Source: Escherichia coli
GTDB lineage: Bacteria; Pseudomonadota; Gammaproteobacteria; Enterobacterales; Enterobacteriaceae
Direction: 5' to 3' (one strand)
Assembly (NCBI RefSeq): GCF_024502345.1
Contig: NZ_JALDNN010000001.1
Length of the DNA: 64,000 nucleotides
The first letter of the stretch is position 1; each line of letters starts with the position of its first letter. This document shows, piece by piece, positions 2,198 to 52,438 of the stretch. The notes below the pieces were generated by a model. The model saw only the letters and a program-made list of their open reading frames with translations. It did no database searches and was not told the DNA's origin. Position numbers and translations under genes: made by a program.

Positions 2198-2398
2198 ACA
2201 TGTAGAGTGCCTCTTACTGACCGTAAGGTCAAGGAGAAGAGAGCAATGAAGCAGCATAAGGCGATGATTGTCGCCCTGATCGTCATCTGTATCACCGCCG
2301 TAGTGGCGGCGCTGGTAACGAGAAAAGACCTCTGTGAGGTTCACATCCGAACTGGCCAGACGGAGGTTGCTGTTTTCACGGCTTACGAATCCGAGTAA
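2189..2398 (+). CDS. mokC: MokC, in-frame upstream extension of hokC
   Basis: ATG at 2189 in frame with hokC; MLNTCRVPLTDRKVKEKRA-MKQHK... Confidence 0.7.
   Translation: MLNTCRVPLTDRKVKEKRAMKQHKAMIVALIVICITAVVAALVTRKDLCEVHIRTGQTEVAVFTAYESE
2246..2398 (+). CDS. hokC: Type I toxin HokC (Hok/Gef family small membrane peptide)
   Basis: 50-aa MKQHKAMIVALIVICITAVVAALVTRKDLCEVHIRTGQTEVAVFTAYESE. Confidence 0.9.
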   Translation: MKQHKAMIVALIVICITAVVAALVTRKDLCEVHIRTGQTEVAVFTAYESE

Positions 2399-2420
2399 GT
2401 GCAACGGCGGGGAGTGATCC

Positions 2421-3759
2421 CATAAGCGCTAACTTAAGGGTTGTGGTATTACGCCTGATATGATTTAACGTGCCGATGAATTACTCTCACGATAACTGGT
2501 CAGCAATTCTGGCCCATATTGGTAAGCCCGAAGAACTGGATACTTCGGCACGTAATGCCGGGGCTCTAACCCGCCGCCGCGAAATTCGTGATGCTGCAAC
2601 TCTGCTACGTCTGGGGCTGGCTTACGGCCCCGGGGGGATGTCATTACGTGAAGTCACTGCATGGGCTCAGCTCCATGACGTTGCAACATTATCTGACGTG
2701 GCTCTCCTGAAGCGGCTGCGGAATGCCGCCGACTGGTTTGGCATACTTGCCGCACAAACACTTGCTGTGCGCGCCGCAGTTACGGGTTGTACAAGCGGAA
2801 AGAGATTGCGTCTTGTCGATGGAACAGCAATCAGTGCGCCCGGGGGCGGCAGCGCTGAATGGCGACTACATATGGGATATGATCCTCATACCTGTCAGTT
2901 CACTGATTTTGAGCTAACCGACAGCAGAGACGCTGAACGGCTGGACCGATTTGCGCAAACGGCAGACGAGATACGCATTGCTGACCGGGGATTCGGTTCG
3001 CGTCCCGAATGTATCCGCTCACTTGCTTTTGGAGAAGCTGATTATATCGTCCGGGTTCACTGGCGAGGATTGCGCTGGTTAACTGCAGAAGGAATGCGCT
3101 TTGACATGATGGGTTTTCTGCGCGGGCTGGATTGCGGTAAGAACGGTGAAACCACTGTAATGATAGGCAATTCAGGTAATAAAAAAGCCGGAGCTCCCTT
3201 TCCGGCACGTCTCATTGCCGTATCACTTCCTCCCGAAAAAGCATTAATCAGTAAAACCCGACTGCTCAGCGAGAATCGTCGAAAAGGACGAGTAGTTCAG
3301 GCGGAAACGCTGGAAGCAGCGGGCCATGTGCTATTGCTAACATCATTACCGGAAGATGAATATTCAGCAGAGCAAGTGGCTGATTGTTACCGTCTGCGAT
3401 GGCAAATTGAACTGGCTTTTAAGCGGCTCAAAAGTTTGCTGCACCTGGATGCTTTGCGTGCAAAGGAACCTGAACTCGCGAAAGCGTGGATATTTGCTAA
3501 TCTACTCGCCGCATTTTTAATTGACGACATAATCCAGCCATCGCTGGATTTCCCCCCCAGAAGTGCCGGATCCGAAAAGAAGAACTAACTCGTTGTGGAG
3601 AATAACAAAAATGGTCATCTGGAGCTTACAGGTGGCCATTCGTGGGACAGTATCCCTGACAGCCTACAAAACGCAATTGAAGAACGCGAGGCATCGTCTT
3701 AACGAGGCACCGAGGCGTCGCATTCTTCAGATGGTTCAACCCTTAAGTTAGCGCTTATG
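2421..3759 (+). mobile_element. IS186 insertion sequence
   Basis: Perfect 23-bp terminal inverted repeats cataagcgctaacttaagggttg at 2421-2443 and 3737-3759; flanked by 10-bp direct repeat ggagtgatcc at 2411-2420 and 3760-3769. Confidence 0.9.
2470..3588 (+). CDS. insL: IS186 transposase InsL
   Basis: 372-aa ORF inside the IS186 inverted repeats. Confidence 0.9.
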   Translation: MPMNYSHDNWSAILAHIGKPEELDTSARNAGALTRRREIRDAATLLRLGLAYGPGGMSLREVTAWAQLHDVATLSDVALLKRLRNAADWFGILAAQTLAVRAAVTGCTSGKRLRLVDGTAISAPGGGSAEWRLHMGYDPHTCQFTDFELTDSRDAERLDRFAQTADEIRIADRGFGSRPECIRSLAFGEADYIVRVHWRGLRWLTAEGMRFDMMGFLRGLDCGKNGETTVMIGNSGNKKAGAPFPARLIAVSLPPEKALISKTRLLSENRRKGRVVQAETLEAAGHVLLLTSLPEDEYSAEQVADCYRLRWQIELAFKRLKSLLHLDALRAKEPELAKAWIFANLLAAFLIDDIIQPSLDFPPRSAGSEKKN

Positions 3760-24104: not shown

Positions 24105-24793
24105 TACAGGCCCCTCAGGCTATATCCCATGCCGCGATGAGTATTAATCGGTGAAAGATCGGGGTTGATGGCGCGCAGCTTGGCACGCAACGTTTTAATG
24201 TGGGTATCGACGGTGCGATCGTAGGTGTCCTGCGCATCTTCCCACACGCTATCCATTAGTTGCTGGCGTGACCAGACGCGGCCTGGCGACTTGAGTAACG
24301 TCTTCAGCAATAAAAACTCATACCGCGTCAGCGTTAATGGCGTGTCAAACCAGCTGATCTGCGCCGCGGGTTCATTCAATTCAAAATGACCAATACGGAT
24401 GACGGGAGACGGCGACGAGAACTTCTTCATCCGACGCAGTAAGGTGCGCACCCTGGCGCACACTTCGCGGGGTGAAAACGGTTTAGCCACATAGTCGTCA
24501 GCGCCAATTTCCAGCCCAAGCAGGCGATCGACCTCTTCACTTCGGGCCGTCAGGAACAGTACAGGTAACGCCGGATGGAGCGCCAGTAACTGGCGGCACA
24601 ATTCAAAGCCGCTGATATCAGGCAAACCAACGTCGAGAATCATGACGTCGGGAACCAGCTGGCGAGCTTTATCCAGCACCGGCAAGCCTCGCTCAAAGAC
24701 CTCGACGGCAAAACCTTCCTGCTGCAACATGTAGACCAGCGTGTCGGCTATCCCTTGCTCATCTTCCACTAACCAGACCGTTTCCCGTTGCAT
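24104..24793 (-). CDS. creB: Response regulator CreB
   Basis: 229-aa OmpR-family regulator; 1-nt overlap with creC. Confidence 0.93.
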   Translation of the reverse strand: MQRETVWLVEDEQGIADTLVYMLQQEGFAVEVFERGLPVLDKARQLVPDVMILDVGLPDISGFELCRQLLALHPALPVLFLTARSEEVDRLLGLEIGADDYVAKPFSPREVCARVRTLLRRMKKFSSPSPVIRIGHFELNEPAAQISWFDTPLTLTRYEFLLLKTLLKSPGRVWSRQQLMDSVWEDAQDTYDRTVDTHIKTLRAKLRAINPDLSPINTHRGMGYSLRGL

Positions 24794-48571: not shown

Positions 48572-50158
48572 TTAATGCTCGCGGGTCTGGTGGAACTGAA
48601 CGTCCGGATAACGTTCCTGCGCCAGGCGCAGATTGACCATGCTGGTAGCGATGTAAGCGAGGTTATCGCCGCCATCAAGCGCCAGTTGGCTTTCGTTCTT
48701 ACGCTTGAACTCTTCGAATTTCTTCGCGTCCGCACATTCTACCCAGCGGGCAGTGGCAACGTTGACTGACTCATACACTGCTTCAACGTTGTATTCGCTC
48801 TTCAGGCGCGCTACAACCACATCAAACTGCAGCACACCAACTGCACCAACGATCAGGTCGTTGTTGGAGATCGGACGGAACACCTGCACCGCGCCCTCTT
48901 CGGAAAGCTGTACCAGCCCTTTGAGCAGCTGTTTTTGCTTCAGCGGATCTTTCAGGCGGATACGACGGAACAGTTCTGGTGCGAAGTTCGGAATACCGGT
49001 GAACTTCATCATCTCACCCTGGGTAAAGGTGTCGCCGATCTGAATGGTGCCGTGGTTGTGCAGGCCGAGGATATCGCCAGGATACGCTTCTTCAACGTGC
49101 GAACGGTCACCCGCCATAAAGGTCAGCGCGTCAGAGATCACCACGTCTTTCGCGGTGCGCACCTGGCGCAGCTTCATGCCTTTTTCATATTTACCGGATA
49201 CCACGCGCATAAACGCCACGCGGTCGCGGTGTTTCGGGTCCATGTTGGCCTGAATTTTAAATACGAAGCCGGTAAATTTGTCTTCGCTCGCTTGTACGGT
49301 ACGGGTATCAGTCTGACGCGGCATCGGCGCAGGTGCCCACTCCACCAGGCCATCCAACATATGATCGACGCCGAAGTTACCCAGCGCAGTACCGAAGAAT
49401 ACCGGAGTGATTTCGCCCGCAAGGAACAGCTCTTTGTCGAACTCGTTAGACGCGCCTTTAACCAGTTCCAGTTCGTCACGCAGCTGCTGTGCCAGATCTT
49501 CACCAACCGCAGCATCGAGATCCGGGTTATTCAGCCCTTTAACAATGCGGACTTCCTGAATGGTGTGCCCTTTACCGCTCTGATAGAGATAGGTTTCATC
49601 TTTATAAAGGTGGTAAACGCCTTTAAACAGCTTGCCGCAGCCAATCGGCCAGGTGATCGGCGCACAGCCGATTTTCAGCTCGTTCTCAACTTCATCGAGC
49701 AGTTCCATCGGGTCGCGGATATCACGGTCAAGTTTGTTCATAAAGGTGAGGATCGGCGTGTCGCGCAGACGGGTAACTTCCATCAGCTTACGGGTACGAT
49801 CTTCAACACCTTTTGCGGCGTCGATAACCATCAGGCAGCAGTCCACCGCCGTCAGGGTACGATAGGTATCTTCCGAGAAGTCTTCGTGCCCCGGGGTGTC
49901 TAGCAGGTTAACCAGGCAATCGTGATACGGAAACTGCATCACAGACGTAGTAATGGAGATCCCACGCTGCTTTTCCATCTCCATCCAGTCCGACTTAGCG
50001 TGCTGGTTGGAACCACGGCCTTTTACTGTACCAGCGGTCTGAATGGCCTGTCCGAACAGCAGCACCTTCTCGGTGATGGTAGTTTTACCGGCGTCCGGGT
50101 GAGAAATAATTGCAAAGGTTCTTCTTTTCGCTACCTCTGCGGCCAAAAGGCTTGTCAT
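48572..50158 (-). CDS. prfC: Peptide chain release factor 3 (N-terminus differs from K-12)
   Basis: 528-aa from [27 protein letters not shown]...; K-12 RF3 as recalled begins MTLSPYLQEVAKRR. Confidence 0.93.
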
Positions 50159-50176
50159 AATTGTTGTCTCTTTGAT

Positions 50177-50293
50177 TATGTACAATCATATGTACAAAGA
50201 AAAATTCATGCCGCTGATTGTACATTTTGGAGGTATCAGAGCATAGCAGAACATGATCAGTAGGTGTATTTGTAGCCAAAGAACATTTGTACA
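50177..50293. repeat. Cluster of four TGTACA hexamers (two as TATGTACAA spaced 12 bp)
   Basis: TGTACA at 50179, 50191, 50219 and 50288, far above chance; lies between the prfC start and the dinI-like gene. Confidence 0.6.
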
Positions 50294-50346
50294 TGCAGCA
50301 ATCTTTGTTCTATTGACACTGTTTATTCATACAGTTAAAAATAACA

Positions 50347-50362
50347 CTGTATACAAACACAG
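50347..50362 (+). promoter_or_regulatory. LexA (SOS) box upstream of the dinI-like gene
   Basis: ctgtatacaaacacag = CTGT-N8-ACAG, 16 bp upstream of the start codon. Confidence 0.75.
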
Positions 50363-50377
50363 TGTAGAGGGATTTTT

Positions 50378-50626
50378 ATGCGTATTGAGATCTGCATAGC
50401 CAAAGAGAAAATGACTAAAATGCCAAACGGTGCTGTGGATGCGTTAAAGGAAGAATTAACTCGACGCATCAGTAAGCGTTATGACGATGTAGAGGTGATC
50501 GTAAAAGCCACCAGCAACGATGGCCTTTCTGTTACGCGCACCGCCGATAAAGATTCAGCTAAAACTTTTGTTCAGGAAACTCTGAAAGATACCTGGGAGT
50601 CTGCTGACGAGTGGTTTGTTCACTAA
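50378..50626 (+). CDS. DinI-family DNA-damage-inducible protein
   Basis: 82-aa [31 protein letters not shown]...[15 protein letters not shown]; C-terminus resembles DinI (QETWESADDWF). Confidence 0.85.
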
Positions 50627-51052
50627 TTAACACGTAAAATCGGTAACGGCTGGAAATCATTCAATACTCGCACTATCGGAAGTTCACCAGCCAACCGCAG
50701 CACGTTCTTGCATACGACGTGTCTGCGGTTTTTCAACCATTCAGATACAGCACTCTCATCACATTCATTCTTCCGCATTAAAGTATATATGACCATATCA
50801 CCTTAATATTTTTCTTCTTCAGATAAAAATTGTTATCTATGTATACTTTTAAACCGAATCCGTGTAGAGTCTCTACCTAAGTTAGTTCGCAGCTACCCCT
50901 TCAGTTTGCGCCATTAACCTCCTGACTTTTGCCGCTATCTGTAAGCATTCCTGTATACCTGAAACTACAGGGTTCATCTACGAACTTTAAGAACACCCAG
51001 GATAAAAATTGTCAACTATATTATATATAACACCATACTAATTCGAGGCTAT

Positions 51053-51166
51053 ATGAACAGCATACTGATAATCACTTCACTACTTATCATATTCAGCATT
51101 TTTGGTCATGCTCTAATAAAATTAGGGATTGGCATATCCAATAACCCGGACAAAACCGATGTATAA
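51053..51166 (+). CDS. Hypothetical 37-aa hydrophobic peptide
   Basis: [37 protein letters not shown]; GAGG 5 nt upstream of the ATG; promoter-like AT-rich element upstream. Confidence 0.35.
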
Positions 51167-51234
51167 GTCAACATATCCTGAATCAGACATACAATATTGC
51201 AATGAAAACCAATAATATTTTAAGGAATATCTTC

Positions 51235-51468
51235 ATGAAATCAAAAGACACCCTAAAGTGGTTCCCTGCGCAGCTTCCTGAAGTCAGAATTATCCTGGGA
51301 GATGCTGTCGTGGAAGTAGCAAAACAGGGAAGACCTATCAATACCAGAACATTGCTTGATTACATTGAAGGAAACATAAAGAAAAAGTCATGGCTGGATA
51401 ACAAAGAATTATTACAAACAGCGATATCAGTTCTTAAAGACAACCAAAATTTAAATGGTAAAGTGTAA
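51235..51468 (+). CDS. ydfK: YdfK/YnaE-family prophage protein (cold-shock-inducible family in K-12)
   Basis: 77-aa MKSKDTLKWFPAQLPEVRIILGDAVVEVAKQGRPINTRTLLDYIEG...; AGGAA RBS. Confidence 0.7.
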   Translation: MKSKDTLKWFPAQLPEVRIILGDAVVEVAKQGRPINTRTLLDYIEGNIKKKSWLDNKELLQTAISVLKDNQNLNGKV

Positions 51469-51847
51469 TACCTCCCCTGAAAAATAATTTTTCAATGCAT
51501 TAAAAAAATATCAACAACTACGTTATTCCGCAACAACCTACTTTTTTTACCATTTTTCCACTTTAACAACATTTTGCTCCACTTTTCCACGACCAAACAA
51601 CTTAAAATCTGGTTAAAATAACATACAACACTATTATTCGTCTTCCTCGAGTCCGCCCGGAGTTCGAAAAACAAACCGAGTTAAAGCCATTTTTCAAAAA
51701 ATCGATTTTTGGTTACACCAAAATTACGGGACTGCATCCGAATTCGTTTATTTTCGAACGTATACATACAAATATGTACAATAATAAGCGAAATAATTTT
51801 TGGATATGCATTATGATATGTACACCAATTTCGTATAGAGTCTCACT

Positions 51848-52438
51848 ATGTCTCGAATTTTTGCTTACTGTCGGATATCAACGCTGGATCAGACCCCCGA
51901 AAATCAACGCCGGGAAATCGAAAGTGCAGGTTTTAAAATCAAACCTCAGCAAATAATCGAAGAACACATTAGCGGCTCAGCAGCAACCAGTGAGCGTCCT
52001 GGTTTTAACCGGTTGCTTGCTCGCCTGAAATGTGGTGATCAATTGATTGTGACAAAACTGGATCGCCTTGGTTGTAATGCAATGGATATCAGGAAAACAG
52101 TGGAACAACTGACCGAAACAGGTATCAGAGTGCATTGCTTAGCATTGGGGGGCATTGACCTGACCAGTCCAACAGGAAAAATGATGATGCAAGTAATTTC
52201 AGCAGTCGCTGAATTTGAACGAGACCTTTTACTTGAACGCACTCATTCCGGGATAGTAAGAGCCCGGGGCGCAGGGAAACGTTTTGGTCGACCACCTGTG
52301 TTAAATGAAGAACAGAAACAGGTGGTATTCGAACGAATTAAGTCAGGTGTAAGTATAAGTGCCATTGCCCGGGAATTCAAAACCTCGCGGCAAACCATTT
52401 TAAGAGCCAAAGCAAAACTTCAGACACCTGACATATAA
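51848..52438 (+). CDS. pin: Serine recombinase, Pin-like DNA invertase (PinQ/PinR type)
   Basis: 196-aa [15 protein letters not shown]...; resolvase/invertase catalytic N-domain plus C-terminal HTH. Confidence 0.85.

Follow-up and report, generated by a model that had tools for sequence, protein, structure and literature searches.

The closest described relatives of the small gene analyzed here are two paralogues carried by prophages of Escherichia coli K-12, ynaM (b4744), which is followed by ynaE and pinR in Rac, and ynfT (b4748), which is followed by ydfK and pinQ in Qin. By chromosomal SPA tagging, ynaM and the Qin copy (then named ynfQ) were detected among 36 small proteins (VanOrsdel et al. 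2018, PMC6001520). The level of YnaM-SPA was above that of most newly found small proteins, and the tagged K-12 protein was comparatively abundant in ordinary, unstressed LB cultures, while its start codon gave no ribosome peak in retapamulin or Onc112 data (Weaver et al. 2019, bioRxiv 10.1101/511675). The neighbouring genes ydfK and ynaE have been published as cold-induced and co-regulated with the csp genes, and a tiling-array study found that ydfK and pinQ change as one unit. Two further reports concern the RNA upstream of them. According to later papers that cite Raghavan et al. 2011, that work observed short leader transcripts of ynaE and ydfK that end prematurely, and RNAs designated 'ttcC-ynaE' and '5' UTR-ydfK' were found bound to Hfq (Bilusic et al. 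2014). Regarding transcriptional control, in-vitro gSELEX with RpoS holoenzyme gave published peaks at 1432638 and 1630740, and a cluster of predicted Fur sites (17.1 bits) was placed at the old start of ydfK/ynaE (PMC2189734).

In this work, a member of this family was analyzed in a 64-kb stretch of E. coli DNA (64,000 nt, contig NZ_JALDNN010000001.1), which is referred to as the window. Like K-12 YnaM and YnfT, the peptide encoded in the window is 37 aa long, and 36 of the 37 residues are identical, residue 18 being Ser in K-12 and Gly here. As in K-12, where the genes lie upstream of ynaE/ydfK and pinR/pinQ, the ORF of the window is followed by ydfK and a pin gene. The similarity continues through about 430 nt of upstream sequence, which includes both of the 19-nt elements described below and is ~92-93% identical between the window and the K-12 copies. 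The upstream neighbour is different, a dinI-like gene being found in the prfC-adjacent prophage of the window, whereas ttcC occupies this position in Rac and a truncated ydfJ in Qin. The ORF is the known YnaM/YnfT small protein gene, already entered in EcoCyc, RefSeq and UniProt, and immunoblots have already revealed its product.

Gene identity and prophage setting

An initial reading of the window, made from the letters and a list of open reading frames (the sequence-only reading), had described a 37-aa ORF with a GAGG Shine-Dalgarno. Both the ORF with its translation and the Shine-Dalgarno, which lies 4 nt before the ATG, were confirmed from the sequence and the ORF list. The description of this ORF as unannotated was wrong, as RefSeq/PGAP names it 'YnaM/YnfT family protein' (Table 1). 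The peptide matched the NCBIfam model of the YnaM/YnfT family with 59.9 bits (cutoff 35) over profile positions 1-34 of 34, and YnaM/YnfT was the only family matched. The PHROGs group to which it was assigned has the function entry 'unknown', and neither YnaM nor YdfK had a match in Pfam or PADLOC. In a megablast search against 5,426 complete E. coli genomes, the region was recovered at 100% identity in many strains. The exact peptide sequence was present on at least 1000 contigs, and the 90% cluster to which it belongs contains UniProt YNAM_ECOLI.

Table 1. Coordinates of the features at the ynaM-ydfK locus, numbered from the first nucleotide of the window
Feature	Position	Strand	Basis or remark
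prfC	48572-50158	minus	promoter region adjoins the prophage end
dinI-like gene	50378-50626	+	upstream of the 608-nt intergenic region
Predicted G+C-rich intrinsic terminator, hairpin 50693-50730 plus TTTTT	50693-50735	+	fold energy; conservation in Rac and Qin
Promoter-like site P1, TTCAGA-18 nt-TATACT, predicted start near 50854	50818-50847	+	consensus scan, 9/12
19-nt element copy 1, GATAAAAATTGTTATCTAT	50822-50840		fills the P1 spacer, ~-32 to -14
Predicted 5' leader of the ynaM-ydfK transcript, ~199 nt	50854-51052	+	starts at the predicted P1 start
19-nt element copy 2, GATAAAAATTGTCAACTAT	51001-51019		ends 33 nt upstream of the ynaM ATG
Shine-Dalgarno GAGG	51045-51048	+	direct reading; invariant in the alignment
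ynaM/ynfT-family gene, 37-aa single-helix small membrane protein	51053-51166	+	NF041477, phrog_35882, RefSeq WP_001372053.1
Second promoter-like site TCAACA-16-TACAAT, possible ydfK-specific promoter	51168-51195	+	scan of the spacer
ydfK (cold shock protein YdfK/YnaE family), 234 nt	51235-51468	+	RefSeq annotation, phrog_2718
Serine invertase (pin)	51848-52438	+	downstream of ydfK

The interval from the stop codon of the dinI-like gene to the start of ydfK was 608 nt with 36.7% G+C, which bore out the long AT-rich dinI-ydfK intergenic setting proposed before. The gene order of the 37-aa ORF, ydfK/ynaE and pin was the same in the window, in an identical RefSeq locus, in Rac, in Qin and in phage mEp460, and the wider synteny of terminator, ynaM, ydfK, pin and tfa was found in Rac, Qin, the window and mEp460. 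The RefSeq features under the matching region were, in this order, 'YnaM/YnfT family protein', 'cold shock protein YdfK', a recombinase and tail-fibre genes. Beyond the pin invertase, the tail-fibre assembly gene and the tail-fibre genes lie on the minus strand. In the active phage mEp460 the ynaM-ydfK cassette is placed directly after int/attP, which requires the attP of mEp460_ev081 to be located immediately upstream of the terminator block. The ynaM ORF is also present, and carries no annotation, in the record of mEp460_ev081 (2271-3104).

Several observations were made around the prophage end. It adjoins the promoter region of prfC (window 48572-50378), and the same insertion beside prfC/osmY was found in many other strains of E. 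coli, among them O55:H7 CB9615. In the segment 50313-50362, a strong promoter-like site of the dinI-like gene, TTGACA-18-AAAAAT, carries two LexA-type boxes (CTG-N10-CAG, 50319-50334 and 50347-50362); a minus-strand 'terminator' call at 50365-50344 corresponds to the palindrome of the second box. The hexamer TGTACA occurs 12 times in the window, and six of these occurrences are clustered at two places (50179-50293 and 51775-51824), four where prfC meets the prophage and two a short distance ahead of the pin gene, several of them as ATATGTACAA. The clustered hexamers could be integrase arm-type sites or control elements of pin.

Distribution and coding constraint

The whole module was detected in 2,808 of the 5,426 complete E. 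coli genomes with 89.5-100% identity; about half of these genomes carry the YnaM/YnfT peptide, often in 2 or 3 copies. A phmmer/HMMER search against 1.84 billion representatives returned three clusters, and a YdfK-based scan of 100,044 species, one genome per species, returned two E. coli loci only. The family is very narrow and confined to lambdoid prophages of the Escherichia type, with an identity of at least 87% in all three clusters. As these searches gave no distant homologues, the test of conservation could use population-level variation only. There are in essence two haplotype groups among the copies available, and the conservation arguments thus rest on few independent events.

For the alignment, 18 distinct copies were used, namely those of the window and of K-12 Rac and Qin together with copies taken from further E. 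coli chromosomes and from prophage contigs in IMG/VR. Among these copies, the ynaM ORF had 8 variable sites with 9 changes, 7 of which were synonymous and 2 non-synonymous (G18S and H19Y); synonymous changes make up 23% of all those possible (P = 0.0008). The two control frames over ynaM showed no synonymous enrichment (2 S/7 N and 0 S/9 N), and in ydfK 8 synonymous and 5 non-synonymous substitutions were counted. The excess of synonymous changes demonstrates that the YnaM peptide is under purifying selection. Synonymous constraint in related prophages was a check put forward with the sequence-only reading, and its outcome favoured a real protein. Together with the match to the family HMM and the published immunoblots of the K-12 paralogues, this substantiated the proposal of a genuine gene for a single-helix hydrophobic peptide, the mean hydropathy of which was 1.8-2.5 over residues 1-29 (19-residue window).

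Over more than 30 nt around the ATG, the Rac and Qin copies of K-12 do not differ, so sequencing reads from there cannot be placed uniquely; this may explain why YnaM was missed in ribosome-profiling screens for start sites. As a separate observation, ynaM contains a perfect inverted repeat, ATTGG-CATAT-CCAAT (51128-51142), and the 35 nt around it (51113-51147) showed zero variation in the 18 sequences, third codon positions included.

Predicted terminator and promoter-like site upstream of ynaM

The hairpin downstream of the dinI-like gene had a fold energy of -20 kcal/mol (z = -3.6), and none of 200 shuffles was as stable. It is kept in the K-12 Rac and Qin copies, and is predicted to terminate the dinI-like gene and to insulate the cassette from upstream transcription. 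A block of ~100 nt carrying this hairpin (50630-50731) was also present, at 83-98% identity, in over 200 records of lambdoid phages, among them lambda (24162-24256, between ea31 and ea47), HK97, phi80 and many Stx phages. From this distribution the block looks like a common module junction. In those lambdoid phages it is present without ynaM-ydfK after it. The sole Rfam signal at the locus was a sub-threshold match to CssrB on the opposite strand (50696-50735, 24 bits vs 76), which was due to the terminator hairpin; the reverse complement of this hairpin is part of the Rfam model of CssrB, an sRNA of Shigella. Membership in CssrB was rejected because only the shared hairpin matched, on the other strand and far below the required score.

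Upstream of ynaM, the scan gave no plus-strand promoter-like site other than P1. Its hexamers agree with the consensus at 9 of 12 positions with a spacing of 18 nt, and similar sites are as frequent in shuffled sequence (7 in the region vs 5.7 expected). The block that holds P1 (50796-50855) had only 3 variable sites in 60 nt, compared with 30% variable sites just upstream (50736-50795) and 22% just downstream. Both copies in K-12 have P1 at a distance of 235 nt from the ATG, and it differs there in one base of the spacer only. According to our own coordinate conversion, the two published RpoS gSELEX peaks correspond to ~50845 and ~50879 in the window, within ~50 bp of P1 at a resolution of ~100 bp. 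The ynaE/ydfK hexamers given in a published RpoD gSELEX paper were set aside, as they are located 0.7-1 kb away and outside the conserved module. Judged from the hexamers and their conservation, a sigma-70-like promoter at the first 19-nt copy is plausible.

The pair of 19-nt elements

The direct repeats reported at 50822 and 51001 were present as described, with 17 of 19 positions identical. The two copies share the exact 12-mer GATAAAAATTGT, their start-to-start spacing is 179 bp, equal to 17.05 helical turns, and within copy 1 there is a near-palindrome, GATAAAAA/TTGTTATC. When the 608-nt region was shuffled 200 times with its dinucleotides preserved, 16 matches were reached by the best pair in two shuffles and 17 in none, so the pair is real and somewhat beyond chance. 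Copy 1 had one variable site (50830 T/C) in 17 sequences, and copy 2 had no substitution in 18 sequences, one of which carried a 1-nt deletion in the A run. No further copy was found in the window at up to 2 mismatches, and the only extra exact matches in 2.9 million viral contigs came from three unrelated AT-rich contexts.

The elements had been proposed as a duplicated promoter-like sequence. This was upheld in part: copy 1 is inside the conserved sigma-70-like site, but copy 2 has no convincing hexamers. The promoter scan gave no acceptable -35/-10 pair with a spacing of 16-18 nt at copy 2, where the position equivalent to -35 reads CCAGGA and the best -10-like hexamer is TATATT (51017-51022), the last T of which is lost in the K-12 haplotype. 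Copy 2 is part of a second conserved block (50976-51052), which also holds the Shine-Dalgarno.

Three known types of site were compared with the 19-mer and rejected. As a Fur box it agreed by eye with ~10 of 19 positions of the 19-bp consensus, and the predicted Fur cluster is located elsewhere. A hix/gix-type invertase crossover site was rejected since, compared with the hix sequence, the half-site order of the 19-mer is reversed and its spacing is wrong. Integrase arm-type sites were rejected since over 350 nt separate the elements from the att boundary of Rac.

It is quite conceivable, at somewhat less than an even chance, that the repeat as such is without function, copy 1 being kept as the spacer of the promoter and copy 2 as part of the translation-initiation region, while their likeness is the relic of a small duplication or a coincidence in AT-rich DNA. 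The position of both copies inside larger conserved blocks, the end of the similarity at exactly 19 nt, the restriction of further copies to unrelated contexts and the existence of only two haplotype groups are all in line with this explanation. It does not fit well with a match above that of every shuffle, with a spacing of an integral number of helical turns, or with the absence of substitutions from the 19 nt of copy 2, although this copy is upstream of the Shine-Dalgarno, where no known signal needs it. A functional pair would instead consist of DNA sites for one regulator, which would block the promoter spacer when bound at copy 1 and would be assisted from copy 2 through cooperative binding or looping. 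In the most extended form of this idea, the elements would be a phased operator pair through which a host or prophage regulator loops the DNA and switches ynaM-ydfK on in the cold or under other stress, and YnaM would be a cold- or stress-specific membrane regulator acting with YdfK; we consider this extended form unlikely. As far as the literature found goes, the 19-nt repeat is the only part of the locus that had not been described before, and its possible regulatory role is a minor question.

The predicted leader between P1 and ynaM

The sequence-only reading had also suggested that ~150 nt following copy 1 contain no ORF and could be a small RNA. The first part holds only loosely, since each strand has mechanical ORFs (31-33 codons) in this stretch. 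None of them showed coding-type substitutions (S/N = 4/9, 5/17 and 3/14), and one was broken by stops in relatives. The second part was not supported. The leader RNA (50854-51070) folded no better than shuffled sequence (z = +0.21; 107 of 200 shuffles at least as stable), and RNAalifold on the 18 sequences revealed one-sided GC/GU changes only and no double-sided compensatory pair, a comparison of low power because there are only two haplotype groups. No Rfam match and no predicted terminator were found within 50854-51052. Between P1 and ydfK, variation was highest in the segment 50856-50975 (21.7% variable sites), and only the 60 nt upstream of the P1 block exceeded it. Given this variability and the lack of a stable fold, compensatory pairs and an Rfam match, the stretch between the two 19-nt copies most probably serves as a 5' leader rather than giving rise to an sRNA of its own. 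In view of the Hfq-bound leader RNAs published for ynaE and ydfK, some RNA species may nevertheless arise from it. The reports of these leader RNAs are older than the ynaM/ynfT annotation, and may describe the ynaM mRNA or its leader.

An independent trans-acting sRNA of ~150 nt, starting from copy 1 and ending before ynaM, is therefore improbable. It would agree with the premature ynaE/ydfK leader transcripts that have been reported and with the co-precipitation of 'ttcC-ynaE' and '5' UTR-ydfK' with Hfq. However, such an RNA would need to end where no terminator is predicted, its fold energy is that of shuffles, it has neither compensatory pairs nor an Rfam family, and variation in this segment far exceeds that in the promoter block, the two coding regions and the ynaM-ydfK spacer; the published leaders themselves may simply represent ynaM mRNA. 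Sequence scans for signals of an antisense RNA gave no terminator on the minus strand near the ORF and no antitoxin RNA from Rfam, and promoter-like sites on this strand were at chance level.

The spacer between ynaM and ydfK

The spacer between ynaM and ydfK was 68 nt, and no terminator was predicted within it. It contains the second promoter-like site (Table 1), and the published predicted Fur cluster maps to ~51210 in the window. With this layout, ynaM might be mainly a regulatory upstream ORF, the translation of which, rather than the peptide, tunes ydfK, for example in the cold. The invariable distance of ynaM from ydfK, the uninterrupted spacer and the strong cold regulation of ydfK would suit such a role. 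On the other hand, the selection acts on the amino-acid sequence (7 S/2 N), the tagged peptide is stable and abundant, and ydfK has a promoter-like site of its own. These facts make a mainly regulatory ORF quite unlikely.

Discussion

The ORF of the window is a known gene of the YnaM/YnfT family, carried by a lambdoid prophage of Escherichia at the prophage end by the attachment site, and it very probably belongs to a cassette of P1, leader, ynaM and ydfK. The cassette would be organized in a moron-like order, namely the terminator hairpin, P1 overlapping with copy 1 of the 19-nt element, an unstructured and fast-evolving leader of ~200 nt, ynaM, and ydfK. Transcription would start at P1, and ynaM would be co-transcribed with ydfK. 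The peptide would insert into the inner membrane of lysogens and, rather than acting as a toxin, may modulate a membrane protein or a membrane property, possibly in the cold-shock context of ydfK. The two nearly invariant 19-nt copies would be DNA sites of a single regulator.

The core of this finding was already known, and beyond bookkeeping it matters little. The conserved promoter block, the fast-evolving unstructured leader and the two nearly invariant 19-mers narrow the work on the function and control of YnaM.

Long leaders are common in type I toxin genes such as tisB, zorO and dinQ. A type I toxin-antitoxin system, in which translation of a membrane-depolarising peptide would be held off by an antisense or nearby sRNA from one of the repeated elements, is very unlikely here: the peptide is short, hydrophobic and prophage-encoded, with a single helix, a polar tail and a long leader, but its K-12 paralogue accumulates to a comparatively high level in normal, unstressed growth in LB, unlike type I toxins, YnaM/YnfT is its only family match, the minus strand shows neither promoter-like sites above chance nor a terminator or Rfam antitoxin RNA, and the leader has no stable inhibitory fold. 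The toxin analogy of the sequence-only reading was not supported.

Compared with Hok, Ldr, Ibs, TisB, ShoB, ZorO and DinQ, YnaM has the same small hydrophobic single helix, prophage association and long 5' leader; it differs from these toxins in having no sequence similarity to them and no evident antisense RNA, and in being abundant in normal growth. The mRNAs of cspA, cspB, cspG and cspI have long 5' UTRs. The ynaM locus resembles them in the AT-rich region upstream of the promoter and in the leader of ~200 nt, and its downstream gene ydfK is cold-induced together with the csp genes; no cold-box was seen by eye in the printed sequence, and the cspA thermoregulator of Rfam gave no match. Lambdoid phage morons include bor and lom of lambda and gp15 of HK97. 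The ynaM unit is unlike them in that no terminator was found directly after it and transcription may read on into pin. Like these morons, it is an extra AT-rich gene with a promoter-like site of its own, situated between the tail-fibre genes and the attachment site, separated from the preceding gene by an upstream terminator, and probably expressed in the lysogen.
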